Positions 6,663 to 64,000 of a stretch of 64,000 nt of DNA are shown here, one piece after another (within the stretch, counting starts at the first letter, position 1; every line of letters begins with the position of its first letter). Source of the stretch: Candidatus Daviesbacteria bacterium (GTDB lineage Bacteria; Patescibacteriota; Microgenomatia; Daviesbacterales; UBA10151); contig JAKFWZ010000078.1 of the NCBI GenBank assembly GCA_021731695.1, positions 25,073 through 89,072 on the forward strand, read 5' to 3'. The notes under the pieces are model-generated. The model made no database searches, was not told the origin of the DNA, and saw only the letters and a program-made list of their open reading frames with translations. The translations under genes and the position numbers were made by a program.

Positions 6663-6674
6663 AATTTAAAATTT

Positions 6675-7772: not shown

Positions 7773-7790
7773 GTTTAATATTTAATAAAC

Positions 7791-7915
7791 CAATAAACCA
7801 ATAAACCAATTTCAAATAAAATTGCCTTGGGACTTCGTCTAAAACCAATTCCCAATGCGCTCCAATCTTATTGAAATTTGTATATTTGACATTGGTTTAT
7901 TTGTATATTCTAGCG
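7791..7915. repeat. Dyad CCAAT/ATTGG intergenic element, copy 2
   Basis: Structure is (aaaccaat)x3, then gacttcgtctaaaaccaattcccaat, then tttgacattggtttatttg. The core is 24/26 identical to 50348-50373. The arms are inverted (aaaccaatgtcaa vs ttgacattggttt). Confidence 0.6.
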
Positions 7916-9055: not shown

Positions 9056-9081
9056 AAGCGAGATGTCATTCTAACAAATCT

Positions 9082-10218: not shown

Positions 10219-10304
10219 CTGAAAATTATATTCCAAAACACATAGCAATAATTATGGATGGAAATGAGTCTTTTTCGAAGCCTCTTTCCTGGCGAATTCT
10301 ATGA
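10215..10304 (+). CDS. 29-codon upstream ORF mimicking the UppS N-terminus, ATGA-coupled on both sides
   Basis: Encodes MTENYIPKHIAIIMDGNESFSKPLSWRIL. Its ATG overlaps the TGA of the prenyl synthase and its TGA overlaps the uppS ATG. It is a degenerate copy of uppS codons 10-25. Confidence 0.3.
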   Translation: MTENYIPKHIAIIMDGNESFSKPLSWRIL

Positions 10305-11047
10305 GTATTAATAAACAACCAAGCGAAGAATTTGTTCCTAGACATATTGCCATCATAATGGACGGAAATAGGCGCTGGGCGCGGGTTAGGGGACTTGAGG
10401 ATATCGAGGGACACGAGAAAGGTTCAGAAACTTTGGAAAAAATTGTAGAAGCCGCAGCCAAAGCGGGTGTTAAAACACTTACGGTTTATGCACTCTCAAC
10501 AGAAAATATAAAGGAGCGAGCTAAAAGGGAGATGGGGGGATTATTTAATTTAATGAAATCTTCTTACAACAAAAAAATAAAGAAGATGATGAAAAACGGG
10601 GTGCGGGTAGAAATCTTAGGAGAATTAAATGGTTTGCCTTCTATAATAAAAAATGTAATTAATGAAATCAGAAAAACATATATAGATAACGAAGCGATTA
10701 AATTAAACATTGCCCTAAATTATGGAGGCAAGAAAGAGCTAGTTGAGGCAGTTAAGGACTTAATAAAAGAAGGAATTGATTTAAATGAGCAAAGCTCGAA
10801 ACTTAAAGAATATGTTTCTAAATTAAGCGAATCTGATATCAGTAAAAAACTTTATACTAAAGGAGATACTGATCCCGAACTTGTCATCAGAACCGGCGGA
10901 AGGATTAGACTTTCAAATTTCTTACTCTGGCAGACTGCATACTCAGAGCTTTATTTTACAAAAACTCTTTGGCCGGATTTTGATGAAAAAGAATTTAAAA
11001 AAGCACTTAGCTGGTACAAAAGACAAAAAAGAAATTTTGGGAAGTAA
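10301..11047 (+). CDS. uppS: Undecaprenyl-diphosphate synthase (cis-prenyltransferase)
   Basis: Motifs PRHIAIIMDGNRRWA and RTGGRIRLSNFLLWQTAYSELYF. Confidence 0.9.
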   Translation: MSINKQPSEEFVPRHIAIIMDGNRRWARVRGLEDIEGHEKGSETLEKIVEAAAKAGVKTLTVYALSTENIKERAKREMGGLFNLMKSSYNKKIKKMMKNGVRVEILGELNGLPSIIKNVINEIRKTYIDNEAIKLNIALNYGGKKELVEAVKDLIKEGIDLNEQSSKLKEYVSKLSESDISKKLYTKGDTDPELVIRTGGRIRLSNFLLWQTAYSELYFTKTLWPDFDEKEFKKALSWYKRQKRNFGK

Positions 11048-11088: not shown

Positions 11089-11373
11089 ATGAACACTGTA
11101 AAAGTATCCGCCACCAAAGCTAGGAATAATTTCTTCGAACTTTTAAATCAGGTCGTACTTGGTGCCCGCATAATCATTGTGAAAGATAGAAAGGAGATTG
11201 CAGTCCTATCTCCTAAAAAAAACAAAACTGACTGGAAAGCGCTTCGCCTGGCGACCAAAAAATCACACGGAGCTTTAAAAGACTACGATCCAGAAGATAA
11301 CCCGCTTAGGAAAACAGGAGCGGCTGACTTCTTGGGTAAATGGGACACCAAAGATTACAAAATAGGAGGTTAG
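11089..11373 (+). CDS. Phd/YefM-family antitoxin
   Basis: N-terminus TKARNNFFELLNQVVLGARIIIV. Overlaps the downstream PIN gene. Confidence 0.6.
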   Translation: MNTVKVSATKARNNFFELLNQVVLGARIIIVKDRKEIAVLSPKKNKTDWKALRLATKKSHGALKDYDPEDNPLRKTGAADFLGKWDTKDYKIGG

Positions 11374-11762
11374 TTTCACTGAAATTAGTACTGGACACTA
11401 GTATATTGATTGACCATCTAAGAGGTGGTGATAAGTGGAAACGCATTCTAAGCGAGCTCGAAGAAGATACCGAAATCTATATATCTTCCATAGTGCTCTT
11501 TGAATTATATTCAGGAAAAAGTAGTCAGAATCCACAAATTTCCAGCAAAATCCAACAACTGGTCAAAAATTTTCAAAAAATAGAAATTGATGCCTATTTG
11601 GCGCAAAAAGCTGGAGAGCTTTATCGGGATATGAAACAGACTATTCAAATCCCAGATTATATAATAGCTGCCAGTGCATTGGAAATTGGTGCTCAAGTTG
11701 CAACTTTAAACAACAAAGACTTTGAACAGATCCCCGGTCTTAAACTATATTCAGTAACATAA
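11340..11762 (+). CDS. vapC: PIN-domain toxin (VapC-like)
   Basis: Motif LVLDTSILIDHLRGGD and later acidic residues. The start is uncertain: the ATG at 11340 overlaps the antitoxin, and the alternative lies near an AGGAGG at 11365. Confidence 0.65.
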   Translation: MGHQRLQNRRLVSLKLVLDTSILIDHLRGGDKWKRILSELEEDTEIYISSIVLFELYSGKSSQNPQISSKIQQLVKNFQKIEIDAYLAQKAGELYRDMKQTIQIPDYIIAASALEIGAQVATLNNKDFEQIPGLKLYSVT

Positions 11763-20215: not shown

Positions 20216-21415
20216 ATGTATTTTTATAAAGCCATTATTCTGGCTCTGCTATTTAGTATTCCGTTTGTTCCCATTCAACTAGACCCAATCATAAACTATC
20301 TAATTCATTTTTTAGCCATAATCCTTCTACCAATATTCCTGCCTCAACTTAAAAAAGACCTCCAGTCAAAAAATCTAATCACCATTTTTTTTATTGTTTT
20401 TCTGCTTTCCTCACTAATCTCCACATTTTTCTCCATTAACCCGGGAATAAGTCTTCGGATATTTTTTCTTTATCTATCTTATTTTGTGATATTTACCGCT
20501 TCAAAAAAGATTTTTAGCGAAAGATCTGATCAAAAACTTTTGGTAAGTTTATTAATACTGGCAACCTTATTTTTATCGCTTATATCCTTTTACAATACAG
20601 TTTTTCTAAACTACGTTAATAAAGATTTAATAGGATCAAGTTTTATGTGGCTTTATTATGGACACAACACACTGGCAAATCTGCTTCTTTATATAATCCC
20701 CTTATCGGTTTATTTCCTTCACTTAACATGGGAAAACTCTGTTAAAAGATATTTACTTTCCTTAATAACTGTTTTTTTGCTAATAAGCTTTTATTTGACA
20801 TTTGCCAGGGGAGCTTATCTGGCTCTTATCTTTTCCTTAATAATTACCATACTGCTATTCATAGATTTTTCTAAGAGCAATGTTAGATTGAGTTTAGTTA
20901 TTTTTTTATGGTTGTTAATGATCTCCTTCTTTTCCATAAATCTAATAGCATCAAATTTGAATTTGCATAAATCTGCTAATTTAATATCTGGTAGAGATAT
21001 CTACTGGCAGGAGGCTTTGAAAAATTTTCAGACAAAACCTTTAACCGGAACGGGTCTTAATACTTATAAAATTGTAAGCTTTAAGCAAACAAAAAAAGGT
21101 ATATTAAAAACCGACTCCGCTCATAACTTTTTCCTGCAAATGCTTTCTGATGGGGGAATATTGCTATTTTTATCGAGTATAGGATTAGTCGTAAGCTTAA
21201 TTATTTCAATCTTCAAAAAAATCAAACAAGTTTGTCGCTTCGCGATAAAAGAGCAAAAAAAAGATTATTTCTTACTATCGCTTTGGGTAGGATTTGTAAG
21301 TTCAATCTTGTATAATCTGGTGGATATTGGCTGGCAACTGCCTTTCTGTTTTCTCATTTTCTGGATAATCTCTGCCATTTTAATTCAAGATGAAAACCAT
21401 CTCAAACAAAGCTAA
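20216..21415 (+). CDS. O-antigen ligase/polymerase-family membrane protein
   Basis: About 10 TM segments and the Wzy_C-like loop YWQEALKNFQTKPLTGTGLNTY. Confidence 0.65.
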   Translation: MYFYKAIILALLFSIPFVPIQLDPIINYLIHFLAIILLPIFLPQLKKDLQSKNLITIFFIVFLLSSLISTFFSINPGISLRIFFLYLSYFVIFTASKKIFSERSDQKLLVSLLILATLFLSLISFYNTVFLNYVNKDLIGSSFMWLYYGHNTLANLLLYIIPLSVYFLHLTWENSVKRYLLSLITVFLLISFYLTFARGAYLALIFSLIITILLFIDFSKSNVRLSLVIFLWLLMISFFSINLIASNLNLHKSANLISGRDIYWQEALKNFQTKPLTGTGLNTYKIVSFKQTKKGILKTDSAHNFFLQMLSDGGILLFLSSIGLVVSLIISIFKKIKQVCRFAIKEQKKDYFLLSLWVGFVSSILYNLVDIGWQLPFCFLIFWIISAILIQDENHLKQS

Positions 21416-22379
21416 ATTTACAATTGTTATTCCAACAATCAGAGAAAATAATATTAATGAATTTCTCTCTAAGTGGCAGCATGAGTTCAAAGGTCAAGAC
21501 ATATTAATTATAGAAGACAACCCAACTAAAACTTTTAATCTCCCTAGTTGGGTAGCTCACTTTTCTTGGGAGGACATAGACAAAGAGTTAGGTAAAGATT
21601 CCTGGATAATCCCCAGAAGAGTTGCTGGCATCAGATCTTACGGCTTTTTAAAAGCCTGGCAAAAAAAATCTCAATATATTTTAACTTTAGATGATGACTG
21701 TCTTCCTGAAAAATATGAAGAAAAGTTTCTATCTCTAGTAGAAAAAGCTTTAGAAACAAAATGGGATTCAGATCAGTGGTGGAATACAGTTAAAGGCTTC
21801 TACCCTAGGGGTTACCCCTACAAAATTAGAAAACTAAAACAGGAAACTATTATTCATCATGGACTTTGGTCAAATATCCCAGACCTAGATGGCATCACCC
21901 AAAAACAAAATCCAAACTTAAGAACTGAGCCATTCGCTAAAGTTGAAAAAGTACCTTTTGGAAAGTTTTATTCAATGTGTTCAATGAACTTAAGCTTTAA
22001 AATAAAAGCTGTTCCCATGCTGTACTTTCTTTTAATGAGTGAAGATAGACAAGGGAATAAGTGGGAATATGATAGGTTTGATGATATCTGGGCGGGAATT
22101 TTTTCCAAAAAAATAGCAGACCACTTAGGGTTCGCTATCTCCTCAGGTGCCCCATCTGTTATTCATACCAGGGCATCAAATGTTGATACTAATATTCAAA
22201 AAGAAAAAAAGGGTATAGAGGTAAATGAATGGATATGGGAAAAAATTTCCAAAATCAAATTTCACTCAAATGATCTTAAAGGTTGTTATCTTGAGGTTGC
22301 AGAAGAGATAGAAAATATAAATCCATATTTCAAAAAATTATCACAGGCCATGAAGACCTGGATTAGTCTACTAAAATAA
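21390..22379 (+). CDS. GT-A glycosyltransferase, reversibly-glycosylated-polypeptide (GT75)-like
   Basis: Motif LTLDDDCLPE (DDD). N-terminus FTIVIPTIREN. Confidence 0.45.
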   Translation: MKTISNKAKFTIVIPTIRENNINEFLSKWQHEFKGQDILIIEDNPTKTFNLPSWVAHFSWEDIDKELGKDSWIIPRRVAGIRSYGFLKAWQKKSQYILTLDDDCLPEKYEEKFLSLVEKALETKWDSDQWWNTVKGFYPRGYPYKIRKLKQETIIHHGLWSNIPDLDGITQKQNPNLRTEPFAKVEKVPFGKFYSMCSMNLSFKIKAVPMLYFLLMSEDRQGNKWEYDRFDDIWAGIFSKKIADHLGFAISSGAPSVIHTRASNVDTNIQKEKKGIEVNEWIWEKISKIKFHSNDLKGCYLEVAEEIENINPYFKKLSQAMKTWISLLK

Positions 22380-23149
22380 TGAAAAAAAGATTTTTTAAAA
22401 CTAAGCAAATATTTGATATACCTGTTGCCAATACCTCACTTAAAGAAATAATACCTTTGATTAATACCCTAATTGAAACTTCTAATAAAAAAACTTTTTT
22501 TGGTTTGAACTCACATAATTTATCAGTAAGTCTAAAGAACAAAGGTTATAAGCAAGCCCTGCAAAAAGCAACTATGGTTTATCCTGAAGGGATAGGGACT
22601 ATTATAATTTCAAATATAGTGGGTAGCAAACTAAAGGGAAAAACCACTCTAATGGATTTTATTTATGAAATTTTGTCATCTGCCGAAAAAAATAAATGGT
22701 CAGTTTATTTGCTGGGAGGCAAACCTAATATCGCAAAAGAGGCTGTAGCTGAAATAAAAAAAAAATTTCCTAAAATTAAAATTTCAGGATCAGATCATGG
22801 CTATTTTAAACCCAATCAGGAAAGCAGTATTATTGGTAAAATCAATAAAACCAACACGGATATTCTATTCGTGGCGTTAGGGTCTCCAACCCAGGAACTA
22901 TGGATTGACAGAAATTTAGAAAAAATAAAAGCAAAAGCATTCTTTGGGATTGGGGGATCAATAGATCATCTGTCAGGCAAAATTCCCAGAGCTCCAGCAT
23001 GGATGCACAAGCATGGTTTGGAATGGATTTTTCGCTTAATCAAAGAACCAAAAAGATTATGGAGACGCTATTTATTGGAAAACTTCATTCTTTTAGGAAT
23101 AGTTATGAAAGAAGTTTTGAGTGATAATAATAATGAAGAGAGTTTTTGA
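22379..23149 (+). CDS. WecB/TagA/CpsF-family glycosyltransferase (GT26)
   Basis: Motif LLGGKPNIAKEA...ILFVALGSPTQELWI. Confidence 0.8.
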   Translation: MKKRFFKTKQIFDIPVANTSLKEIIPLINTLIETSNKKTFFGLNSHNLSVSLKNKGYKQALQKATMVYPEGIGTIIISNIVGSKLKGKTTLMDFIYEILSSAEKNKWSVYLLGGKPNIAKEAVAEIKKKFPKIKISGSDHGYFKPNQESSIIGKINKTNTDILFVALGSPTQELWIDRNLEKIKAKAFFGIGGSIDHLSGKIPRAPAWMHKHGLEWIFRLIKEPKRLWRRYLLENFILLGIVMKEVLSDNNNEESF

Positions 23150-23759
23150 TATTTCCATAAGTTTTTTGCTACTAATTTTTCTGATTCCCCTCTGGCTGAT
23201 TTTATTTCTAGTTTTAAAAATTTTTTCACCAGGACCCTTCATCTTTACTCAGCTGCGAATGGGCAAAAATAGCAAGCCCTTTAAAATTTATAAAATCAGG
23301 ACCATGATAAGGGACGCTGAGGAAAAAAAGAAGTCACTCCTGAAATTTAATGAAGTCCAAGCACCAGTTTTTAAAATTAAGAACGATCCAAGGTTCATTA
23401 AATTTGGCAAAGTCTTATCCAGTACCGGCCTTGATGAGTCTATTCAAGTATTGAATGTTTTAAAAGGGGAGATGTCCTTAGTTGGTCCTCGACCATTGCC
23501 TATTAGTGAAGCCAAAAAACTGCCTATTAAATATAAAAAACGCTTTTCCTCACTCCCAGGAATTACCTCAGAATGGGTGATTGAAGGGGCTCACCATATG
23601 AGCTTAAAGCAATGGATGAATTTAGATTTAGAATATGTTAAAAAGGGAAATATCTTTTTTGATTGTTACATTTTATTTGCAACTCTTGAAATAATCTCAA
23701 AAAAACTTATAAACTATGGAAAAGAAATTAATAAAAAACCCAGTCCCCCTAAAGATTAA
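23121..23759 (+). CDS. Undecaprenyl-phosphate sugar phosphotransferase (bacterial sugar transferase)
   Basis: Motifs RVFDISISFLLL and LNVLKGEMSLVGPRP. Confidence 0.8.
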   Translation: MIIIMKRVFDISISFLLLIFLIPLWLILFLVLKIFSPGPFIFTQLRMGKNSKPFKIYKIRTMIRDAEEKKKSLLKFNEVQAPVFKIKNDPRFIKFGKVLSSTGLDESIQVLNVLKGEMSLVGPRPLPISEAKKLPIKYKKRFSSLPGITSEWVIEGAHHMSLKQWMNLDLEYVKKGNIFFDCYILFATLEIISKKLINYGKEINKKPSPPKD

Positions 23760-25746
23760 AAACATTATTTTTATTATTGCTGACACCTTAAGGTTTAAAA
23801 GCACTGGCCTTAGTGGTCTCAACCCATCGCCAACCCCGTTTATAGATTATTTAGCCAGCATGGGTATCAATTTTACTAATGCTTATGCATCCATCACCTG
23901 CACAGATCCTTCTATCACATCTTTGATGAGTGGGAAATATCCCTTATCAATTGGTCTTGTAAACCATGCTAGATTTGTCACGGAAGAAGAAAAAAGCAAT
24001 ATTCATAATTTAGTTTTACTCCCAGAAATATTGAGTAAAAATGGATTTAAAACCATAGCTATAGATTGGGTAGGAAGATGGCATAAAAAAGGTTATCAAT
24101 TCTACTCAAATGGATTAAGCAGTTCTACAAGAAGCGACTTTATTATGGATAAAATTCCCTCACTAGCTATTTTAATGAGAAGTTTTGATAAAATTTCTCT
24201 GAGAACTTTAAACAGAGAATTTTTCATCAACGGTTATTATGCTTTTTACCCAAATCCCAAAATACCGTATGATCCCGCTGATAGAGTAGTTGATGAAGCT
24301 ATTATTAAGTTAAAAAAAAATGAAAAACAAAAAAAATTTATTTATCTTCACCTTTGGGATGCACATTGGCCACACACAAGGTCAACAGGATTGAGCTCTT
24401 ATTTAAAAAACTCTATTGAAGATACATATTTAGCTGAAGTTAGTTTTCTAGATCAGCAATTAGCTCGGCTATTCGCTTATCTAAAACAGTCTGATAAGTT
24501 GAGTGAAACTTTAATAATTTTTACAGCCGACCATGGAGAGAATTTTTACGAACATGATAACCCCCTAACTCATCAAAATTTATATGAGGATGTTGTAAAA
24601 ATTCCTTTAATTCTCTATCATCCCAATCTCAAGCAAAAAAAAACTTCTTCTTTAGTCCAACATACCGATATTTTCCCCACAATACTTGAATTTCTAAAGA
24701 TAAAGTTTAATCAAAAAATTGATGGAGTCAGTCTATTACCACTAATCAATTCCACCAAACAAAGTATTCATAAAGTCGTTTTTTTTGAAGATATAGTTTA
24801 TAGAAGAATAAAATTTAGCAATTTTGTTAAAAGAAGAAGGGGATTAAGAAACAAAAAATATAAATACATCGCCACCTATAAAGGCTCGGAAAAAGAGATA
24901 TATAAAATTAACCTCAGGGAAGACCAGAAAATTTATTCTGAAGAACTTTATGATCTGAGTAAAGATCCTTTAGAGCAATTAAATATAGCAAATATTAAGC
25001 CCAACATAATTAAATCATTAAGAAAAGATTTAACAAAAACTGTACTCCACCAAAATTTTAATAGAATAATAAATGATCCTCTAATCGGTTCAAAAGTTAA
25101 GAATTCAGTTTCAATTCTTAAACAGGCATTTAGAAAATATCCAAGCAAAAAACTAATCATAGCCTGGAAAGGAGGTAAAGATACCACAGTTATGATGCAT
25201 ATTATTCGTTGCATCTTTAAAGAGGAAATACCTATCAGGGTTTTTTTTAATGATACAACTTTGGAGTTTAAGGAGACGTATCAATTTATTGAAAAAATAA
25301 AAAAACTATGGAACCTTAATTTAGTAGTAATCAAACACGATAAAAAAGAACTTTTAGAGTACTACAAAACTAAAGATTTAAATAAAAAGAAAGAACTTTC
25401 CAGAATAATGAAAATTACAGTAATAAATAAAGCTCTTGAAAAATACAAATTAAAAGGTTTCTTGCTTGGGATAAGGAAAGATGAAAATCCAGCTAGGAAA
25501 AACGAAAAATACTTTTCAAAAAGAAAAAACCATATTAGAATCCATCCCTTACTTGATTGGACTGAATCAGACATCTGGTACTACACCCAAAATATGGGAG
25601 TCCCATACTCGGTACTTTATGATCAAGGATATCGTTCAGTTGGAGAACAACCCTTTACTTCTAAATCTTACTCAAATGAAAGATCTGGAAGAGAGCAAGA
25701 AAAAGAAGCATCAATGGGAAGACTCAGAAAACTCGGGTATTGGTAA
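23716..25746 (+). CDS. Fusion protein: sulfatase-family domain (degenerate FGly signature) plus PAPS-reductase/PP-loop domain
   Basis: N-terminal half has CTDPSITSLMSGKYP (sulfatase signature with R changed to I) and TADHGE. C-terminal half has IAWKGGKDTTVMMH, a PP-loop of the PAPS reductase family. Confidence 0.55.
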   Translation: MEKKLIKNPVPLKIKNIIFIIADTLRFKSTGLSGLNPSPTPFIDYLASMGINFTNAYASITCTDPSITSLMSGKYPLSIGLVNHARFVTEEEKSNIHNLVLLPEILSKNGFKTIAIDWVGRWHKKGYQFYSNGLSSSTRSDFIMDKIPSLAILMRSFDKISLRTLNREFFINGYYAFYPNPKIPYDPADRVVDEAIIKLKKNEKQKKFIYLHLWDAHWPHTRSTGLSSYLKNSIEDTYLAEVSFLDQQLARLFAYLKQSDKLSETLIIFTADHGENFYEHDNPLTHQNLYEDVVKIPLILYHPNLKQKKTSSLVQHTDIFPTILEFLKIKFNQKIDGVSLLPLINSTKQSIHKVVFFEDIVYRRIKFSNFVKRRRGLRNKKYKYIATYKGSEKEIYKINLREDQKIYSEELYDLSKDPLEQLNIANIKPNIIKSLRKDLTKTVLHQNFNRIINDPLIGSKVKNSVSILKQAFRKYPSKKLIIAWKGGKDTTVMMHIIRCIFKEEIPIRVFFNDTTLEFKETYQFIEKIKKLWNLNLVVIKHDKKELLEYYKTKDLNKKKELSRIMKITVINKALEKYKLKGFLLGIRKDENPARKNEKYFSKRKNHIRIHPLLDWTESDIWYYTQNMGVPYSVLYDQGYRSVGEQPFTSKSYSNERSGREQEKEASMGRLRKLGYW

Positions 25747-27214
25747 CTTTACTAGATCTCGATTTAGACAGGATATTTATTAGTAAACCGAGCATTAGAA
25801 AAAAAAGTATTCCAACTCTATCTCCAAATGATCTCATTGTCATAAGGCTGTTGAAAAAAAACGTTATATAAGACGCAAATAGAACAAGTGAAAGTTGCTT
25901 TTTCTCCTCAGGAACGAAGCGAATAAAATGCAATATAAAAAAGAAAGATGTCACTGAAAAAACGGACACTATCAATAGTCCAGTTAATCCTTGTTCTGTG
26001 GCAATTAGCAGCTGAAAGTTATGCACAGCAGCAAGAAATTTTGTTGAAGTATCTGACTCTGTAAAGTCATAATTTGCAAAATAATACAAAAACCCACCTC
26101 CGCCAACTCCCAACAAAGGATTACTTCTAATAATCTGAACAGATTGATCCACTAATTCTTCTCTAGTCAAAAGACTATTATCTTCCAAACTGAAGCTTAG
26201 AAATCGATTAGTTCCAAAGCCACTAATTACCATTACTGAAAAAATCAACACTATAGCCAAAAAGTCAATTTTTATCTCCTCAAAAATTTTTCTAATACTT
26301 ATGACTCCGTATCTCCAAAGTAAAAAAATTGTAGTCGCATAAGCAAAAATACAGCTCACTAAGCCCCATCTAGATAAAGCAATAAGTGAAGTAAAAATAC
26401 AAGCAAAAAATGCTAAGTGACCACCAGTCCTATACCATTTATTAGGTGATAAAAACGATAAAACAGCAATGGGTAAAAGAAGAGCTAAATAATTGGTCAA
26501 ATAATTAGGATGAGATAATGTACCGACAACTCTAAACGATGCATATTGAATAGGTCGATTAACTGCTTGATGAGCGTAATTTAAACGGTCGACGCTCTCT
26601 AAAGGTATTCCAATAACCCCACCATATATAAACTGAAAAAAAGAAATAATCCCTTCCAAGAAAATTGTTCCAAGTAAGCCAACTACAATAAAAGAGATTG
26701 CCTGTCTATTAAGGTTGAGCCGGGAGAACACAAAGTAAACTGATAAACTCAAAATAAATTTTAATAACCAAACTGAAGAAGCATCCAAATCAACCCCATT
26801 TAAAATAGAAATTTCCGAAATAATTAAAAAGAATAGTAGTACTAACTCAAAAAAGAAAAGCCTTATTTTTTGATGACTTAAATTGTATTGTCTCACCAAA
26901 AAAAAAGCTAAAAAAACCAGTAACAAGTTAGCAAATGATAAAAAAACAATTCCATATTGACTTTGACTTAAATTAATCTTTTGAGAGGATATGTTAGATA
27001 ATTGGATCTGAGAACTAGGAGCAATTGGTAAAAAAATAATAAATAAAAACAAAACAAGAGGTAGCAAGTTAACCTTATAAATTAAAAATCTTGATAAAAC
27101 TCTAGAAAATAACTTGTAGGACTTGCTTGAAATGGAATTTGTTAAAAAAGCATTGATAATAAAACTGGAATATTCATGGTCAATGGATAAACTTTTGGTT
27201 TTTTTAATTATCAT
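25724..27214 (-). CDS. Polytopic membrane protein, O-antigen ligase/polymerase-like
   Basis: At least 10 TM helices, in glycan-cluster context. Confidence 0.45.
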   Translation of the reverse strand: MIIKKTKSLSIDHEYSSFIINAFLTNSISSKSYKLFSRVLSRFLIYKVNLLPLVLFLFIIFLPIAPSSQIQLSNISSQKINLSQSQYGIVFLSFANLLLVFLAFFLVRQYNLSHQKIRLFFFELVLLFFLIISEISILNGVDLDASSVWLLKFILSLSVYFVFSRLNLNRQAISFIVVGLLGTIFLEGIISFFQFIYGGVIGIPLESVDRLNYAHQAVNRPIQYASFRVVGTLSHPNYLTNYLALLLPIAVLSFLSPNKWYRTGGHLAFFACIFTSLIALSRWGLVSCIFAYATTIFLLWRYGVISIRKIFEEIKIDFLAIVLIFSVMVISGFGTNRFLSFSLEDNSLLTREELVDQSVQIIRSNPLLGVGGGGFLYYFANYDFTESDTSTKFLAAVHNFQLLIATEQGLTGLLIVSVFSVTSFFFILHFIRFVPEEKKQLSLVLFASYITFFFNSLMTMRSFGDRVGILFFLMLGLLINILSKSRSSKVTNTRVF

Positions 27215-28050
27215 TTAACACCAACTATATAAGCCTCAGTAATCTTTGTCCCATTGCTCACAAAAGAAACTTTTTCGCCTATAATTATTGCCTGATCCTT
27301 TTTAAAAACGATGGTATTGCCAAATTTTTGAACTAGCATCTTAACTCTTAAAGTTATGTCAACTTTTTGAGGATCAGTAGTTAGAATCTTCTGTCCATTA
27401 GCATCATCCACTGTAATTTCAGCAGGTACTACTTTTTTTTCTAAAATCTCGACCCTTGCTTGTGGATTCTCTAGATTAGTCATAACGCCAGGTTTAATGC
27501 TATCTGCATACCATGGCCACTGACCATAAATCTTAAGTGCTACTTCAATAGGTTCAAACTTTTCCTCAGTACTACTATCTTCTCTAATTTCAGAAATAGT
27601 TCCATTAATTTGTCCATTAGTCAGCCTTAGCTCAATAGGGGAACCAACTTTAATTATTTTATTTTTATATTCATATTCACCAGTTCTGGAATTAATCTTT
27701 GTTTTAAGCTTTAACTGAACCCTAATATCTTTATTAGAAGTTGGTCCATTAGTTGCATTAACAGAAGATTGTAAATTGCTATAAGTAATTACATCTGAAA
27801 CTTCAGCTATAGTCTCCCCAGTTGGACTTTTCTCAATATCTCCCTCTTTTACAGAATAAGCTCTAAATACTGGAATATTTGCGTCCATCACCTCAACATT
27901 TATCCATTTTTCTTCAGGATTCAGAAACTTATATAATATAAACCCACCCAAAATAACTATGATAATAATCAAATAATCCAGCAGCTTTAGTTTTCTAAGT
28001 AGGGAAGTGAGTTTCATCAAGTGTAAACCTATCTTAAATAGATTTCCCAA
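27211..28050 (-). CDS. N-terminally anchored hypothetical protein
   Basis: One TM helix then a soluble domain. The gene overlaps the upstream gene by 4 nt. Confidence 0.4.
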   Translation of the reverse strand: MGNLFKIGLHLMKLTSLLRKLKLLDYLIIIIVILGGFILYKFLNPEEKWINVEVMDANIPVFRAYSVKEGDIEKSPTGETIAEVSDVITYSNLQSSVNATNGPTSNKDIRVQLKLKTKINSRTGEYEYKNKIIKVGSPIELRLTNGQINGTISEIREDSSTEEKFEPIEVALKIYGQWPWYADSIKPGVMTNLENPQARVEILEKKVVPAEITVDDANGQKILTTDPQKVDITLRVKMLVQKFGNTIVFKKDQAIIIGEKVSFVSNGTKITEAYIVGVK

Positions 28051-28079: not shown

Positions 28080-28871
28080 ATGAAAAAAGATCTAAAACTT
28101 ACCTCATCATTATTTGTTGGCAGGTTCCAACCCTTTCACAAGGGGCATCAAACTTTAATAGAAACAGTTTTAAAAAAAGGCAAACCTGTGGTTATTGCTT
28201 TAAGAGATACAGAAATCTCTCATAAAAATCCTTATACAGTTCATGAAAGATGGTCCATGATTCAGAAAGCCCTTAAAAAATATGGCGAGCTTGTCAAAAT
28301 TGTAGTAATACCTGATATTGATGAAATTTGTTACGGCAGGGAAGTGGGCTATGACATCAGAAAAATAGATCTGGACGAGAGAACCGAAAGTATCTCCGGG
28401 ACAAAAACCAGAGAAAAAAACCCACCCACAAAACCCATCATCTGGCTGACTGGTCAATCAGGTGCAGGCAAATCAACTTTAGCTAATGCTCTCCAAAAAG
28501 AAATTGGGGGAGTAATCTTAGATGGGGATGAAATGAGGGAAACTATCTCTCAAGGCCTAGGCTTTTCAAAGATAGACAGGGAAACTCATAACTTAAAAGT
28601 AGCAAGTCTTGCTTTGATGCTTGCAAAAAAAAATATAGTTATAGTCTCAGTCATAGCTCCCTTTGCAGATACCAGAGTAAAAATAGATAAATTAATTAAA
28701 CCAATCTGGGTTTATGTTAAAAGAAAATTACCTAAAGATTCGAGTAAGCCTTATGAAGAACCTCGCGATCCTGATATAGGAGTCGAATCTGACAAACAAA
28801 CTACAGCTAAACAGGTAGCAGTAATAACTGAATTTCTTAAAAAAACTAACCATAAATTTGGTAACCTCTAA
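28080..28871 (+). CDS. Fusion: small HxGH nucleotidyltransferase domain plus adenylylsulfate (APS) kinase
   Basis: N-terminal domain has GRFQPFHKGH (cytidylyl/adenylyl-transferase superfamily). C-terminal domain has IWLTGQSGAGKST...LDGDEMR..GLGFS..DR..N..., the CysC signature. Confidence 0.7.
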   Translation: MKKDLKLTSSLFVGRFQPFHKGHQTLIETVLKKGKPVVIALRDTEISHKNPYTVHERWSMIQKALKKYGELVKIVVIPDIDEICYGREVGYDIRKIDLDERTESISGTKTREKNPPTKPIIWLTGQSGAGKSTLANALQKEIGGVILDGDEMRETISQGLGFSKIDRETHNLKVASLALMLAKKNIVIVSVIAPFADTRVKIDKLIKPIWVYVKRKLPKDSSKPYEEPRDPDIGVESDKQTTAKQVAVITEFLKKTNHKFGNL

Positions 28872-29329
28872 GGCGATACGGATGGCTGGACTTTAGTTGC
28901 TAAACTAGGTGCAGGTCTTGGTGAGGATTGCGGAGTCGTGTATTGAATAGAAACTACCTGGTATTTTCCATCCAACATCTCAAGACCTATAACCGCCTCT
29001 TTGTTAAGCTCGATAGTTGATAAATCTCCTTTAGATACCTTATTTGCGGGTGAAATAATTACTAATCCATATGCAGCTCCAAAGGTTTCAGATAAATTAT
29101 TGTTTGTGCTGGTAATTTTTAACTCTTCACTCAAAACTTGGATTATTTTGCCCCGAATATAGGCGTTTTGAGTAAAAAATAGTCTAGTGTCAACTTCAGG
29201 TTGTGCTTGCGGAGTTAGATTGACTGGAGCTGAATTATTACCCCAAATCAAAAATCCAATAATAACTCCGGCGAGAAAAAAAATTACAGATAAAAAATAA
29301 GGCATGCCTCTCTTTATTACATTTACCAT
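28868..29329 (-). CDS. Small anchored protein, paralog of 30174-30629
   Basis: Shared EAVIGLEMLDGKYQVVSIQY block. Confidence 0.45.
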   Translation of the reverse strand: MVNVIKRGMPYFLSVIFFLAGVIIGFLIWGNNSAPVNLTPQAQPEVDTRLFFTQNAYIRGKIIQVLSEELKITSTNNNLSETFGAAYGLVIISPANKVSKGDLSTIELNKEAVIGLEMLDGKYQVVSIQYTTPQSSPRPAPSLATKVQPSVSP

Positions 29330-29419: not shown

Positions 29420-30085
29420 TCATGGGACTACTATTTGGGAAGAACTGGTTGCCTGTTGATTCGCGGTTGTGGCATTGCGGTTTAGTTTATGCATAATATT
29501 AATCCTATCCAGCTTTATAACTCCGGACTTTAGCCCCTTGCTGATTGTTATCCTAATTTGTTGGTATTGTTTTAGATCAGTAAGCTTAGCTTTAGCATAG
29601 TACTCTTTGCCTGGTATAACCTGGCCATTGATAGAAAATTTGGCATTTTGACCAAGAGCATAAAACTGAGTTTTACTATCTATTATAAATTTCTGGATCT
29701 CAGGATTTTTCTCCTGCAGGTCAGTTTTAAGTTCTGTTTGGTCACCGGCTTTTACAATATCTTTAACCACAGCATCTAGTATGTAAGTTGTGCGGGCTGA
29801 CTGAACATAAGATTCGTCTAGCGGAAATAGATATTGACCAGAATCAGTTTGATCATCTTTATTAAGAGTGGACGACTCAGGATAAAAATTTCTAACGATA
29901 ATAAAAGAGATTATCCCAGCTAATATTAACCCAATCAGAGTAAAGACTATAGCGAATATAACTTTATATTGTGATTTAGGAGCTTGTCCGATTTGTGTTT
30001 GTTCCGGATGAGAAGCGGGTAGGTTTGGCTGAATATTGGTAGTAGCAGGTTGCAAGACGCCGGAGGCAGAATTCTGATCAGCCAT
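29420..30085 (-). CDS. Small anchored protein
   Basis: TM helix VIFAIVFTLIGLILAGIISFIIV. Confidence 0.4.
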   Translation of the reverse strand: MADQNSASGVLQPATTNIQPNLPASHPEQTQIGQAPKSQYKVIFAIVFTLIGLILAGIISFIIVRNFYPESSTLNKDDQTDSGQYLFPLDESYVQSARTTYILDAVVKDIVKAGDQTELKTDLQEKNPEIQKFIIDSKTQFYALGQNAKFSINGQVIPGKEYYAKAKLTDLKQYQQIRITISKGLKSGVIKLDRINIMHKLNRNATTANQQATSSSQIVVP

Positions 30086-30173: not shown

Positions 30174-30629
30174 TTAAAGGCTTTGTAACTGGGAGGATTG
30201 AGTTGCTGGTTTTAAGGCGGGCCTAAGAAGAGGTGGGGAAGCAGAAATATATTGTATAGTTACTGCCTGATAAGTTCCGTTAATCATTTCGAGCCCAATT
30301 AAAACCTCCTTACCTGCCTCAAGTACTGATAAATCTGATGTGGGCTTATTGTTTCCAGGGATGGTGATAATTATTCTGTCGGAGACTGCAACATTCCCGG
30401 AGATATTATTGTTCAAATTGGTAACTGCAAGATTTTTACCATTAATTTGATCAATTCTGCCACGGATATTTGCAATTTGCGAAGAATACAGAGGATTATC
30501 TATATTTATTTTAGTCTCCTGAATTACAGGCTGAGAAGGTGCGGGTTTGTTGTTTGCAAAAAAGCCCAAACCTATTCCGGCTAAGAATACAATTCCTGTG
30601 AATAAATAAAATCTAATATCTTTTGGCAT
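30174..30629 (-). CDS. Small anchored protein, paralog of 28868-29329
   Basis: Shared EVLIGLEMINGTYQAVTIQY block. Confidence 0.45.
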   Translation of the reverse strand: MPKDIRFYLFTGIVFLAGIGLGFFANNKPAPSQPVIQETKINIDNPLYSSQIANIRGRIDQINGKNLAVTNLNNNISGNVAVSDRIIITIPGNNKPTSDLSVLEAGKEVLIGLEMINGTYQAVTIQYISASPPLLRPALKPATQSSQLQSL

Positions 30630-30807: not shown

Positions 30808-31020
30808 ATGCAGATGAAATTAAATGCAAAACAACTTCGTAATTCGTTATTAGTTAAGTCGTTAAAAAACAAAACGAAAAACGAAACAACGAAAAACGAG
30901 ATCTATATAATCTTAGACAATATTGTAGACACTTATAATATTGGTGCGATTTTCAGGCTGGCTGATGCAGTTGCAACTAAAAAAGCTTACCCTTGGGGAA
31001 AAATGGATTATTCTTCCTAG
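30808..31020 (+). pseudogene. Orphan 5' fragment of a SpoU/TrmH methyltransferase gene, about 88% identical to 31792-31965
   Basis: Encodes MKLNAKQLRNSLLVKSLKNKTKNETTKNEIYIILDNIVDTYNIGAIFRLADA, then diverges and stops. It is interrupted by the TA module. Confidence 0.65.
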
Positions 31021-31433
31021 GGTTCTTTGCGGATTATGTTAGTAATTTTATCAAAATCCTCATCGTAAGAGTAAATTGTCTTGGCTGTTGATTGTTGGGT
31101 AAGCACAGCGAGTATTGCATCTGTGAAGTCGATATTTTTATCAACATAATAATCCAATGCTTGAATGATGACTTGTTTATTCTCAACTTTAAAGTTTGGA
31201 TATCGCAACAGAGGAACTAATAAATCCCTTATCTTGTGTTTGGGCAAATTGTAGAGATTGGGGGATGAAAGTACAAAAACTGCATCAGCAATGACAGTTT
31301 CAGGCGCAGATAAAATTAATTCACCTCCTGAGGCCTTTTCAAAAAGAACTGTCGAATCTTTACGTCTACGCTCATCATCACCGGTTAGAAGTCTAATAAT
31401 TACATTTGTATCAACATATGAATCATTTGCCAT
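31017..31433 (-). CDS. vapC: PIN-domain toxin (VapC-like)
   Basis: Motifs YVDTNVIIRLL...TDAILA...YDEDFD. Confidence 0.7.
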   Translation of the reverse strand: MANDSYVDTNVIIRLLTGDDERRRKDSTVLFEKASGGELILSAPETVIADAVFVLSSPNLYNLPKHKIRDLLVPLLRYPNFKVENKQVIIQALDYYVDKNIDFTDAILAVLTQQSTAKTIYSYDEDFDKITNIIRKEP

Positions 31434-31740
31434 ATTTCTCTTTTAAATAATCCTCACGGGCTATATTTCGCACTTGCTTCCAAGGAAGGGGTTTTTTGAG
31501 TTTTCCTGCACCACCACTTAAGGATTTAATGTCAGGATATTTGGCAGGTGTCACCTGGACTAAGCCGCCTGGGCTGATAACAAAAGCCACTTTATCATTA
31601 GTATCTACTCCTAAATGTTTACGTACCTCAATAGGAATAGTTATTTGTCCTTTACTGCTTAATGTAGTGACTAATTGTTTAGAATGGGTATTTTGTAGCA
31701 TGAGTAAGAATATATTATCATTGTCCTTACTTACCGTCAA
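31423..31740 (-). CDS. AbrB/MazE/SpoVT-fold antitoxin
   Basis: Motif SSKGQITIPIEVRKHLGV. The likely start is Met14. Confidence 0.6.
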   Translation of the reverse strand: MTVSKDNDNIFLLMLQNTHSKQLVTTLSSKGQITIPIEVRKHLGVDTNDKVAFVISPGGLVQVTPAKYPDIKSLSGGAGKLKKPLPWKQVRNIAREDYLKEKYGK

Positions 31741-34134: not shown

Positions 34135-35028
34135 CTATGGTTTTAAGTTCGGAAGAAATAGCGCGTAATCGAGTCCGTTAACAGTACCGTCGCCGTTTAA
34201 ATCCGCTTTTTTCTTTAAATCTGTATCAAGCTCATTGCCCCATGCGCTATAAACAACAGAGAGATCGATGCTATTAATTAACGAGTCAGAATTGAAATCA
34301 AACGATGCGGCAGAGGAACTTGCTACAGGATTACGGGAGGCTAAAGGGCGTGAGGTAGCAAGTGGTTTTATTGAGGCTGAAGCAGAGGCTTGAAGAGATT
34401 GAGGGGGGTTTGGGGCTGCGCTTTTAACAGAGACTATGGCATTTTGGACAGGAGCTAAAGAGTTTGTCGTGCTGCCAAGAATATTTATCTGTGTTTGGGA
34501 ATTGTCCAGTGAGATAATTGTTGAGGGCGCTGCTTTTTTTGAAGTAAAACTCAAAGTTGCGACTACTCCGGAACCTGAAATTCCGGCATTGCCATCTGTC
34601 CCCAAGGAAACTGATGCAGAGCCCGGGGCCATTACCGGCGCAATTAAAACTTTGGGCAAAAACTCTTTGGGTGTTATGCTTGTCAACTCTAAAATTTCAG
34701 GATCATATTTTATGGCCAGCTTAGCGCTGGTGATTTGATTGTTATTGGCGTTTGCAAAAATATCAATGCTAAATTTATCTCCAACTTTAGTGTCCGTAGC
34801 CGGTGGTTTAAAGGAGAGATCTGTAGGAGTTAAGTTTGCCTGGGTTTGAGTCTGCTGAGGTCTCTGGGTCAAATAGACTCCTGCTCCAACCCCGACAACC
34901 AATAAAAATACAGCAGTTAAGGAGCCTAAAATTTTGGGATTTAAAATACTGTTTTTAAAAATGCTTTTATTTTTATAGCTTTCAGCTGAGATGACGATTG
35001 GTTTATCTTTGGAAGGTATGATTTGCAT
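34135..35028 (-). CDS. Anchored surface protein with cohesin-like domain and C-terminal dockerin-like EF-hand pair
   Basis: N-terminal TM helix. Block DKFSIDIFANANNNQITSAKLAIKYDPEILEL. C-terminus DLNGDGTVNGLDYALFL. Confidence 0.5.
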   Translation of the reverse strand: MQIIPSKDKPIVISAESYKNKSIFKNSILNPKILGSLTAVFLLVVGVGAGVYLTQRPQQTQTQANLTPTDLSFKPPATDTKVGDKFSIDIFANANNNQITSAKLAIKYDPEILELTSITPKEFLPKVLIAPVMAPGSASVSLGTDGNAGISGSGVVATLSFTSKKAAPSTIISLDNSQTQINILGSTTNSLAPVQNAIVSVKSAAPNPPQSLQASASASIKPLATSRPLASRNPVASSSAASFDFNSDSLINSIDLSVVYSAWGNELDTDLKKKADLNGDGTVNGLDYALFLPNLKP

Positions 35029-36031: not shown

Positions 36032-36341
36032 CTTGCGTAAAAGTAGGAAAAAGACCTGTCGATACTATCTAACCGGATAGCTTCGACTCCAAAAGAGTGG
36101 TGGGAAAAAACACGATCAATTAAATGATTGTGAGACAAGAGTATAAGTTTCATGAAAGTGAAGCCAAGCTCTGTCAATTCCAAATTTTAGTAAGCAAAGC
36201 TTGCGATAGTTCCGGCTAACGCCGTGTAACTATCTAAGTAATACTTACTTCGAAAACAATAAATCGAAATTTCACTTTCACAAGTGATACAGCGTTTTAG
36301 AGTTGGAAAAACTTTTTAAGTGTTTTAAAAACACTTTATTT

Positions 36342-36384
<43 letters not shown>

Positions 36385-36589
36385 TAAGCATGCAAGTCGA
36401 ACGATCTGTAGCAATACAGGTAGTGGCGGACGGTCGAGTAACGCGTGGGGATCTGCCTTAAAGTTGGACATAGCTCATCGAAAGGTGGGGTAATTTCCAA
36501 TGTGAACGTAAGTTCAAAGCCGCAAGGCGCTTTAAGATGAACCCGCGTCCTATCAGCTAGTTGGTGGGGTAAAAGCCTACCAAGGCATC

Positions 36590-36621
<32 letters not shown>

Positions 36622-37159
36622 GGAATAGCACTGAGACACGGGCTATACATCTACGGATGGCAGCAACTGGGAATCTTGCGCAATGGGGGAAACCCTGACG
36701 CAGCGACGCCGCGTGGAGGATTGAAGGCCCTCGGGTTGTAAACTCCTTTTGACTGGGAAGATTATGACTGTACCAGTAGAATAAGCACCTGCTAACTACG
36801 TGCCAGAAGCCTCGGTAATACGTAGGGTGCAAGCGTTATCCGGATTTATTGGGCGTAAAGTGTTGCGTAGGCTGATTTGCGCATTTTGTTTAAAAGGCTA
36901 AGGCTTAACCTTAGTTTTGGGCAAAATATGGCAAATCTTGATGGTTTAAGAGGGTACTGGAACTTAACATGTAGCAGTGAAATGCGTTGATATGTTAAGG
37001 AACACCAAAGGCGTAGGCAGGTACCTGGGAAACTCATGACGCTGAGGCACGACAGCTAGGGGAGCGAAGCAGATTAGAGACCTGCGTAGTCCTAGCCGTA
37101 AACGATGAATGCTAGTTAGTCCCTCTTTTGGGACCGACGTAAGGTAACCCGTTAAGCAT

Positions 37160-37210
<51 letters not shown>

Positions 37211-37671
37211 AGGCGCACAAGCAGTGGAGCATGTGGTTTAATTCGATACAAAGCGAAAAACCTCACCAGGGTTTGACATGTAGTTGCTAAGCCTAAGAAA
37301 CTAGGCCTCCTTCGAGGGTACTACACAGATGGTGCATGGCTGTCGTCAGCTCGTGGCGTGAGCTGTACCGTTAAGTCGGGTAACGAGCGCAACCCGCATC
37401 GTATGTTAAATAATTCATACGAAACAGCCCCAATTTTTGGGGAGGAAGGCGCGGATGACGTCAAGTCAGCACGCCTCTTACACCCTGGGCTACACACATC
37501 CTACAATGGCGAATAACAACGAGTTGCAAGCCGGTAACGGCAAGCTAATCTCTAAAATTTCGCCCCAGTTCAGATTGAGGGCTGCAATTTGCCCTCATGA
37601 AGTCGGAATTGCTAGTAATCGCGAATCAGCAGGTCGCGGTGAATACGTTCTCGCCTCTTGTACACACCGCC

Positions 37672-38603
37672 TTATAGTATTTAACATAATGCTATAAAAA
37701 AACGCGCGTGGCAGCGTAAATATCTAGTTGGTTAAAGTCCAACCTATACTTAATAGTAGTCAAAAAAATTTGGCAGATCCGATAGAGTAATTTATCGATT
37801 TGGAGGGCCTGAGACAAATAGCAGTCCTCAGATAAAAAAATCTTTTAATAAGTGATCTCAGCCGGGCGGTTTGAGAGAAATTTAACGATTAGGAAAAGAT
37901 TTTTGAGGAATGTTAGGAATAGATATTAACGTGACCCATGGAGATCCTACTGGGAAGAAGGTAATTGCCCAGAGGAAGTCAGCAGATTCATAGTAGGTAT
38001 TATTGACATTTGGGTTAGATTCGGGTTAATCTGAATTTATACCAAATAAATACTGAAGGGATCTACGAAATGTTAACACCAGACTATATTGTTGGTTTAA
38101 CCGATGGAGAAGGCTGTTTTCTGGTTCAGATAAGAACCGATTGTCGAATAGTCTTGAGATATTTTATTACACAACGTTTTGATAATGTCGAACTTTTAAA
38201 CAAAGTTTATGGCTTTTTCAAAATAGGCTATGTATATCGAAAATTTCAGGGAAATGACAAAAAGAAAATGACCTTTGTCTATGAGGTAACGAAACAAAAC
38301 GATATTCAAAATGTGATTATTCCTTTCTTTAGGAAATATCCATTAGAAGGTATCAAAAATGAGTCTTTTAGAAGGTTTGCCCGTATTGCTGAGATTGTAA
38401 AAAATCGACAGGATACACGTAAATTATCTGAAGATGAATTAAAAGAAGTCTGGCATTTGAAGCTCTCTATGAATTCTCTTCATAATGAGCCAAAGGATCG
38501 TCTGAGCGGAGCTCGTAATGATCCCAGAAACATTTCGGCTCGCTTAGTGCCGGAAATCGGCTCGCTAAGTGGGAACGGAAAACAACCTTAAGTTATTCCA
38601 ATC
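37672..38603 (+). mobile_element. Self-splicing intron (probably group I) in 16S near E. coli position 1400, carrying a homing-endonuclease ORF
   Basis: Insertion between ACACCGCC and CGTCA. Contains the LAGLIDADG ORF. Boundaries are good to about 2 nt. Confidence 0.65.
38070..38591 (+). CDS. LAGLIDADG homing endonuclease (intron-encoded)
   Basis: Motif YIVGLTDGEGCF. It lies inside the 16S insertion. Confidence 0.75.
   Translation: MLTPDYIVGLTDGEGCFLVQIRTDCRIVLRYFITQRFDNVELLNKVYGFFKIGYVYRKFQGNDKKKMTFVYEVTKQNDIQNVIIPFFRKYPLEGIKNESFRRFARIAEIVKNRQDTRKLSEDELKEVWHLKLSMNSLHNEPKDRLSGARNDPRNISARLVPEIGSLSGNGKQP

Positions 38604-62254: not shown

Positions 62255-64000
<1,746 letters not shown>

Follow-up and report, generated by a model that had tools for sequence, protein, structure and literature searches.

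A candidate compact 3'-phosphoadenosine 5'-phosphosulfate synthase combining a lid-less kinase with a putative sulfurylase domain derived from nicotinamide mononucleotide adenylyltransferases

Sulfate activation is the entry reaction both for sulfation and for assimilatory sulfate reduction, and to our knowledge only two enzyme types, Sat and CysDN, are known to catalyze it. In 3'-phosphoadenosine 5'-phosphosulfate (PAPS) synthases such as those from Aquifex aeolicus (2GKS) and humans (PAPSS1/2), an HxxH-type nucleotidyltransferase-fold domain and an adenosine 5'-phosphosulfate (APS) kinase domain reside on one polypeptide, their order differing between animals and Aquifex or fungi, and formation of PAPS pulls the unfavourable first step. 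Here we describe a gene with the same two kinds of parts in a much smaller format. It is located at positions 28080..28871 (plus strand) of a 64,000-nucleotide stretch of Candidatus Daviesbacteria DNA (contig JAKFWZ010000078.1), in the following termed the window, and encodes a 263-residue fusion of a mini-nucleotidyltransferase (mini-NT) with a lid-less APS-kinase-type domain. The first domain comprises only ~110 residues instead of the ~350-400 residues of Sat and descends from nicotinamide mononucleotide adenylyltransferases (NMNATs). On the basis of comparative sequence evidence we consider it fairly probable that the mini-NT domain makes APS from ATP and sulfate and that the kinase domain converts APS into PAPS, such that the protein would act as a compact bifunctional PAPS synthase.

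Further described systems resemble the fusion protein in single aspects. The two-domain APS kinase from Thiobacillus denitrificans (3CR8), which is among the top structural matches, likewise combines a Sat-fold domain with APS kinase. Its N-terminal domain, however, is a full-size, catalytically inactive Sat, whereas the small domain studied here keeps every catalytic signature. NadR (NMNAT plus ribosylnicotinamide kinase) and coenzyme A (CoA) synthase (phosphopantetheine adenylyltransferase, PPAT, plus dephospho-CoA kinase) are also fusions of an HxGH adenylyltransferase with a P-loop kinase, but their kinases belong to other families, and genes for NAD or CoA metabolism are missing from the context of the mini-NT gene. 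The same distinction applies to the NadM-type NMNATs (MJ0541, 1F9A): the genomic partners of mini-NT come from sulfur metabolism and not from NAD metabolism. Finally, the kinase domain shares its fold, the P-loop, LDGDxxR and the GFS..DR..N motif with CysC (PF01583 / TIGR00455) but differs from it by the loss of the lid and of five further residues, by a serine-to-alanine exchange in the FISP motif and by a score below the curated cut-off.

The open reading frame (ORF) starts with ATG and forms a single plus-strand unit. A gap of 29 nt separates it from a divergent upstream gene for a DUF4330 protein (27211-28050, minus strand), and its 3' end overlaps the convergent gene 28868..29329 by 4 nt. 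Scanning for promoters and terminators at the gene yielded signals no better than those in shuffled sequences. Pfam recognizes both domains far above chance: residues 11-68 match CTP_transf_like (E 8e-12) and residues 120-214 match APS_kinase (E 5e-22). The initial annotation, made from the letters of the window and its reading frames, was correct in regarding the ORF as real and as a nucleotidyltransferase::APS-kinase fusion, in noting GRFQPFHKGH and an N-terminal domain of about 115 residues, and in stating that canonical sulfurylases are larger. The end of this domain is marked by ISGTKTR. The mini-NT domain, with its HxGH nucleotidyltransferase fold, spans residues 1-115 (28080..28424). 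It contains the HxGH signature GRFQPFHKGH, expected to bind and activate ATP (residues 14-23, 28119..28148), LRDT with the nearly invariant arginine R42 (28200-28211), the hallmark GRxVG[YW] loop in the form YGREVGY (residues 85-91, 28332..28352) and the second nucleotidyltransferase signature, ISxTxxR, in the form ISGTKTR (residues 105-111, 28392..28412). The kinase domain occupies residues 117-263 (28428..28868) and harbors the P-loop GQSGAGKS (residues 125-132, 28452..28475) and the APS-kinase catalytic and APS-binding motif LDGDEMR...GFSKIDRETHN (residues 147-171, 28518..28592). The sequence VKRKLPKDSSKPYEEP (residues 213-228, 28716..28763) stands in the place of the missing 22-residue lid. 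All of these elements lie on the plus strand.

The ancestry of the mini-NT domain was assessed with a profile and alignment of 61 diverse family members. The best matches of this profile are archaeal/NadM-type NMNATs (MJ0541, E 2e-15), and the match to MJ0541 is split, with profile positions 6-76 aligning to MJ0541 residues 4-76 and positions 84-109 to residues 109-133. The roughly 32 intervening NMNAT residues (MJ0541 77-108), which build the NMN site, are reduced to a GR loop of about seven residues in mini-NT, and the C-terminal 35 residues (MJ0541 134-168), a helical subdomain, are without counterpart. The ATP motifs GxFxPxHxGH and SxTxxR of archaeal-type NMNATs (TIGR01527 / PRK01153) are kept; the cut-offs of these models are missed by the protein (59.1 < 127 and 54.1 < 181.2 bits). 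Residues G14, R15, P18, H20, G22, H23, R87, G90, S106, T108 and R111 are invariant across the 61 sequences and R42 is nearly so. Two arginines are specific for the family, R42 of RDT and R87 of GRxVG[YW], and the latter motif is present in 79 of 80 viral loci. The GRxVGY loop is put forward as a candidate oxyanion (sulfate) site.

In the tabulated comparison of the N-terminal domain the NMNAT 1f9a (30% identity) ranks first with a value of 11.1, followed by PPAT (10.9), NadM (10.1) and NadR (9.6), while the ATP sulfurylases 1v47, 2gks and 1r6x reach 8.2, 8.0 and 7.6, respectively, and glycerol-3-phosphate cytidylyltransferase 7.8. Sequence similarity to PPAT is weak (E 5e-5 or worse), and a structure search among the viral proteins of BFVD returned only generic cytidylyltransferase-like matches. 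A grouping with the cytidylyltransferases of CDP-alcohol pathways, the outcome that the initial annotation had named as speaking against sulfate adenylylation, was not found. Matches to these enzymes, including CTP:glycerol-3-phosphate cytidylyltransferase, are weak, such that this function was discarded, and the nearest relatives are the archaeal NMNATs. Function as an NMNAT was likewise rejected, with the NMN-binding segment deleted and NAD genes present in none of the contexts; NMNAT activity is unlikely even though the catalytic ATP motifs are still invariant.

The second domain had been described as a canonical CysC, which does not hold. An alignment with MAFFT to E. coli CysC and to full-length CysC proteins of relatives (P0169, P0165) reveals a clean deletion of the 22-residue lid and a further deletion of five residues after the P-loop helix, and FISP is changed to VIAP, that is serine is replaced by alanine. 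The same gap is apparent in alignments to solved APS kinases, in which the step from query residue 208 to residue 224 corresponds to about 40 residues of the target. The domain passes the Pfam gathering threshold (79.1 > 21.1) and fails every NCBIfam CysC model (93.4 < 138.7 bits for TIGR00455; 90.3 < 244). Its fold agrees with that of the APS kinases 7yq0 and 5cb8 (Foldseek TM ~0.75), its best sequence match in the PDB is 8a8h (E 7e-19), and the best Foldseek match for the whole protein is the Sat-APS kinase fusion from Aquifex (2gks). In 53 homologues the P-loop and residues D148, D150, R153, F162, R167 and N171 show no or next to no variation. The catalytic core needed to phosphorylate the 3' position of an adenosine 5'-phospho-anion is retained, with the lid gone. 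Taken together, the protein falls outside the curated limits of Sat and NMNAT and only partly inside those of CysC, and would be a PAPS synthase of a Patescibacteria type, in which a non-orthologous, NMNAT-derived sulfurylase candidate is joined to a lid-less kinase.

The combination of the two domains is not a peculiarity of the window. More than 1500 clusters with 60-83% identity have the same architecture of mini-NT and lid-less kinase in 250-285 residues, among them proteins with the source names Roizmanbacteria, Paceibacterota and Jacksonbacteria. Among representatives at 50% identity all permutations occur, that is mini-NT before or after the kinase, and lid-less as well as full-length kinases. 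In many cases the partner is a bona fide APS kinase: P0169, P0165 and P0154 carry complete APS_kinase domains fused to mini-NT, and the CysC part of P0169 passes the equivalog cut-off of TIGR00455 (257 vs 138.7 bits). This set of fusions in both orders and with both kinase types can be read as Rosetta-stone evidence for a joint role in PAPS formation. Displacement of one of the domains, which likewise speaks for such a role, is seen in some proteins. In P0217 a CysD scoring above the cut-off of its NCBIfam subfamily accompanies the lid-less kinase in one polypeptide, in P0247 Sulfotransfer_4 is the fusion partner of this kinase, and P0221 consists of mini-NT and a DHH/DHHA1 domain. In Peribacteria and Peregrinibacteria mini-NT and kinase are encoded by separate neighbouring ORFs. 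The coupling is in fact near-obligate. Detection of kinase partners with hidden Markov models (HMMs) of the kinase types showed that, among the 123 loci containing the hallmark mini-NT, 64 have a fusion, 50 have a same-strand kinase gene no more than 200 nt away and five have one within 3 kb, leaving four with none.

In species-representative genomes the pair occurs in Patescibacteria, Omnitrophota, Planctomycetota (including Scalindua) and Acidobacteriota, and it is also found in single-cell genomes of Pelagibacteraceae and in Rhodospirillales, including the cultured Inquilinus limosus SA128. The type with a full CysC preceding mini-NT (K-NT) is a feature of large phage-like contigs of 173-353 kb, one of which (L007) has T4-type genes, and in IMG/VR the domain is present on at least 474 contigs. 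K-NT proteins are furthermore present in the cultured Xylella phages Salvo, Sano and Bacata and in several phages of Xanthomonas and Stenotrophomonas (including Stenotrophomonas phage DLP_6), where they are annotated as 'kinase' only (phrog_10255). In phage Salvo a MazG-like gene (gp27) lies five genes upstream of the K-NT gene gp32, and gp24 (L009 1792-2487), annotated as 'cysteine dioxygenase' and a further gene of sulfur metabolism, lies eight genes upstream in the same early region. On two viral contigs (L105 2053-2682 and L115 7085-7765) a MazG-like all-alpha NTP pyrophosphohydrolase domain takes the place of the kinase as fusion partner of mini-NT, and both fusion genes lie directly downstream of a sulfotransferase-like ORF.

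Genomic context was searched in the 64-kb window and in flanks of +-10 kb in relatives. Sulfotransferases are found in association with the pair in cellular and viral genomes alike. In an Omnitrophota locus (L027) genes for TauE, two Pfam-verified sulfotransferases and an ADI-like protein precede NT::CysC on the same strand, and the corresponding layout with two sulfotransferase genes, one further gene and NT::CysC recurs in two other Omnitrophota loci (L022, L023). In Patescibacteria a Pfam-verified sulfotransferase ORF overlaps the start of a fusion sharing 65% identity with the window protein (L014). Four nucleotides before another fusion, 70% identical to the window protein (L013), an ORF ends whose sulfotransferase-like C-terminal domain with a PRSGAT motif is detected by our own HMM only. 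A sulfotransferase resides within a glycosyltransferase cluster 6 kb from the fusion in L001, and a gene for an FGE-sulfatase lies 2 kb away in L005. In many phage loci a sulfotransferase, a divergent lid-less kinase and mini-NT are encoded by three abutting genes. Such cassettes, with all genes on one strand, overlapping ends and a Pfam-verified sulfotransferase, are found in L119, L123 (3407-4922), L140, L163 and L170, and their kinase-like gene product is characterized by GLPGSGKTT..FNADEIRK..DWDFSxEGRxRQ. Nineteen of 79 viral loci and seven cellular loci encode a sulfotransferase at a distance of no more than 3 kb; all ten ORFs tested against Pfam Sulfotransfer_1/3 passed, and several of the calls beyond these ten rest on our own HMM.

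Transporters of the TauE family flank the fusion in L008, L027 and L042, and a gene for a DUF2061 membrane protein directly follows the phage CysC::mini-NT gene in 16 loci (e.g. L006 11218-11442 and L007 11031-11474). Both may be partners for sulfate uptake. No Sat homologue (E ≤ 1) was found in the 2.34 Mb of flanking DNA from 172 loci, and CysN occurs in only one of these loci (L028). About 95% of the neighbourhoods contain no other sulfurylase candidate.

The pathway from sulfate to PAPS requires exactly two activities, and two catalytic domains are present; PAPS synthesis probably proceeds in two steps as follows. The N-terminal domain would bind ATP via the HxGH and ISxTxxR signatures, and R42 together with R87 of the GRxVGY loop would hold sulfate at the place taken by NMN in the NMNAT ancestor. 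A substrate as small as sulfate would be in keeping with the lost NMN pocket. Sulfate would act as the nucleophile, giving rise to APS and pyrophosphate. The APS-kinase-type domain, to judge from its conserved catalytic residues, would phosphorylate the 3'-OH of APS, and formation of PAPS would pull the unfavourable first step. PAPS may then serve for the sulfation of surface glycans. Extending this proposal to the whole family, we lean cautiously towards viewing the GRxVGY mini-domain of ~110 residues as a third, independently evolved class of ATP sulfurylase that arose from NMNAT by loss of the NMN pocket and that would, together with an often lid-less APS kinase, form the smallest known PAPS synthase. 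Together with a sulfotransferase, kinase and nucleotidyltransferase would make up a portable sulfation cassette that spreads among large phages of marine and soil origin as well as among Patescibacteria, Omnitrophota, Planctomycetota and Acidobacteriota.

Several observations weigh against a sulfurylase function of mini-NT and against PAPS as the product. The domain has the HxxH nucleotidyltransferase alpha/beta fold that is also present in Sat (PF01747), yet Sat is not among the PDB matches of its profile at E ≤ 10, and Pfam detects no ATP-sulfurylase domain in the fusion protein. An hhalign comparison with a Sat alignment, the sequences of which were checked against PDB entries, extends over just 15 columns (ISGTxxR) with a probability of 19%. 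The Sat motifs QxRN (QxRNPxHxxH) and GRDHAG are missing, and so is the PUA-like N-terminal domain, as nothing precedes the HxGH strand in the domain of 115 residues. Because profile similarity to Sat is limited to ISGTxxR, a miniaturised Sat was rejected as an explanation: mini-NT is a derivative of NMNAT and has only the superfamily fold in common with Sat. With respect to the kinase, the deleted lid is a mobile element that in canonical APS kinases closes over ATP and APS and provides binding residues for both, so that activity of the lid-less form is not assured. Furthermore, mini-NT is not always the sole sulfurylase candidate, because CysD-like domains are encoded nearby in four mini-NT loci, namely 2.3 kb upstream of the fusion gene in the window, in L002, in L091 and in L028; two additional ones (L092, L093) have no mini-NT within 10 kb. 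In L028, a metagenome-assembled genome of an Acidobacteriota member, canonical cysN-cysD divergently adjoin a gene for NT::full-CysC (5120-8256). Phages, finally, could rely on APS provided by their host.

Some of these facts form the basis of the alternative that fares best, which we nevertheless regard as unlikely. It holds that the kinase is an APS kinase but that mini-NT is not a sulfurylase, APS being supplied by the CysD-like protein, by CysDN or Sat encoded elsewhere, or by the phage host. Mini-NT would then be an accessory nucleotide-binding domain that might be regulatory, might stand in structurally for the missing lid, or might run the reaction backwards (APS + pyrophosphate → ATP + sulfate) and so buffer inhibitory APS. 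The linkage of CysD-like domains and the adjoining cysDN genes are in line with this view, as are the absence of the Sat-specific sulfate motifs, the pairing of a lid-less kinase with CysD but not with mini-NT in P0217 and the precedent of the APS kinase from T. denitrificans with its catalytically dead Sat-like domain. On the other hand, invariance of HxGH, ISxTxxR and the two arginines in very diverse members would be unexpected for a passive domain, and no other sulfurylase candidate is present in the vast majority of neighbourhoods. The compact phage cassettes retain the nucleotidyltransferase as a separate gene, and the NT::MazG fusions adjoin sulfotransferase-like genes without any kinase being present. 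In L028 the otherwise invariant R87 is changed to histidine (GR to GH), so that the arginine is lost precisely in the copy beside cysDN. This copy may be decaying or repurposed, and its loss of R87 fits redundancy at this locus if mini-NT is a sulfurylase. Under the same assumption CysD in the place of mini-NT in P0217 fits functional equivalence of the two.

The CysD-like domain of the window is part of an unusual protein of 676 residues encoded at 23716..25746 on the plus strand. The initial annotation had stated that the window is devoid of further sulfur assimilation genes, which is contradicted by this ORF with its Sulfatase (residues 15-441) and PAPS_reduct (residues 480-649) domains. 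Its proposal that the small domain adenylylates sulfate is supported by comparative evidence, that is by linkage, fusions to CysC, sulfotransferase cassettes and flanks free of Sat; the CysD-like domain answers in part to the counter-indication it had named, a separate sulfurylase in the genome. The sulfatase-like part has the alkaline-phosphatase fold and is cytoplasmic. It lacks the formylglycine motif CxPxR and has a conserved TxTDPS instead, such that a canonical formylglycine sulfatase was rejected. The PAPS_reduct part (residues ~460-676) has a CysD-type PP-loop, WKGGKDTT (cf. SxGKDS), and a CysD-type C-terminal tail, ERSGREQEKEASMGRLRKLGYW, as is evident from comparison with the E. coli sequence. 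About 80 internal residues of CysD are missing; profile positions 15-154 of 301 align, and the score remains below the CysD cut-off (104.9 < 195 bits). A partner CysN is not encoded in the window. A PAPS reductase of the CysH type was rejected, since ECGLH is absent, the C-terminal region is free of cysteine and the CysH score is too low (117.6 < 154 bits).

The gene lies in a surface-glycan cluster (20216..27214) that has the NT::kinase gene at its edge and comprises genes for Wzy_C (20216-21415), an RGP-type glycosyltransferase (21390-22379), WecG/TagA (22379-23149), Bac_transf (23121-23759) and, beyond the sulfatase-like::PAPS_reduct fusion, a second Wzy_C (25724-27214, minus strand). This cluster is presumed to be the consumer of activated sulfate. 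A classical sulfotransferase was not found among the ~60 ORFs of the window that were scanned. Sulfatase-like::PAPS_reduct fusions form about 25 clusters with sources named Daviesbacteria or Microgenomates, and relatives (L091 10001-11989, L092 10001-12010, L093 10001-12031) are always embedded in clusters for glycan synthesis, with no classical sulfotransferase found near these loci. The gene order in L091 is that of the window: mevalonate genes are followed by the sulfatase-like fusion, by Wzy, WecG and again Wzy, by an unassigned gene and by NT::kinase, and in L002 the sulfatase-like and CysD-like pieces are separate genes around the NT::kinase fusion. The protein could be a sulfurylase or a new enzyme transferring sulfate or phosphate. 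That activated sulfate is used by this alkaline-phosphatase-fold::CysD-like fusion in place of a classical sulfotransferase in the lineage of the window is an idea to which we give little credence.

A second alternative is that the substrate is not sulfate at all. Mini-NT would adenylylate e.g. 4'-phosphopantetheine or NMN and the kinase would phosphorylate the 3'-OH of the adenosine, in analogy to CoA synthase or NadR, with the missing lid leaving space for a bulkier 5' substituent. These two enzymes are precedents for the combination of nucleotidyltransferase and P-loop kinase (NadR structures are among the matches), and structural similarity to PPAT and NMNAT is evident. A homologue is listed as 'dephospho-CoA kinase' in one database entry, the identity of 60-83% across lineages of Patescibacteria suggests a core function, and acetyl-CoA is used by the organism in the mevalonate pathway. 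Against this, the NMN-binding segment is deleted, sequence similarity to PPAT is weak as stated above, and the kinase retains the residues of APS kinases that bind the phosphosulfate. Fusion partners and neighbours are all of the sulfate type (CysC, CysD, sulfotransferases, TauE, sulfatase-like proteins), with not a single CoA or NAD gene among them, and we consider a substrate other than sulfate very improbable. The weakest alternative, a dead or very slow lid-less kinase of the Patescibacteria type that only binds APS or PAPS and leaves APS as the output, akin to the C-terminal APS-kinase-like allosteric domain of fungal ATP sulfurylase, would account for the missing lid, the exchanged FISP serine and the scores below every NCBIfam APS-kinase cut-off, but it can largely be dismissed, as the fungal domain has lost its P-loop while P-loop, both LDGD aspartates and the APS-binding residues persist here, and as lid-less kinases occur in operons with PAPS-requiring sulfotransferases (L013, L014) and fused to Sulfotransfer_4 (P0247).

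In the searchable literature we found no description of the fusion, and nothing relevant on sulfate activation in the candidate phyla radiation or in phages or on a new sulfurylase; phage cysC is mentioned there only as a common auxiliary gene. The proteins are presently labelled 'adenylyl-sulfate kinase' or 'cytidyltransferase-like'. Should the proposed PAPS synthase function prove true, annotation of sulfur metabolism would change for Patescibacteria and for phage auxiliary genes, and it would become explicable how genome-reduced symbionts and phages without recognised sulfurylases sulfate surface glycans. Enzymatic sulfation would moreover gain a very compact module as its source of PAPS. 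Homologues in the cultured I. limosus strain and in cultured phages render the idea testable.

Additional features of the window deserve mention. A complete mevalonate pathway is encoded at 2134-11047 (thiolase, 3-hydroxy-3-methylglutaryl-CoA synthase and reductase, two GHMP kinases and diphosphomevalonate decarboxylase), followed by genes for polyprenyl synthase and undecaprenyl-diphosphate synthase; this arrangement is syntenic in L091. Downstream of the fusion gene a row of three genes on the minus strand (28868-29329, 29420-30085 and 30174-30629) encodes small proteins that carry a transmembrane helix at the N-terminus and match nothing in Pfam, the first and third being paralogues (..EAVIGLEMLDGKYQVVSIQY.. 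vs ..EVLIGLEMINGTYQAVTIQY..). A protein with cohesin and dockerin domains (34135-35028, minus strand) and a dockerin protein of 744 residues (46845-49079, plus strand), the latter with a weak match to a Hint domain below the cut-off, represent cellulosome-type modules that are unusual for a Patescibacteria-like genome. The 16S rRNA gene (36336-37743) has just 1408 nt for the full model of 1533 positions, and an ORF for a LAGLIDADG homing endonuclease (38070-38591) is situated ~330 nt downstream. The 23S rRNA gene (62260-64000), cut by the end of the window, is located 24 kb from the 16S rRNA gene and thus unlinked. PIN-domain proteins are encoded at 11340-11762 (plus strand) and 31017-31433 (minus strand), each beside a small overlapping ORF (11089-11373 and 31423-31740), and the two pairs are probably toxin-antitoxin systems of the VapBC type.

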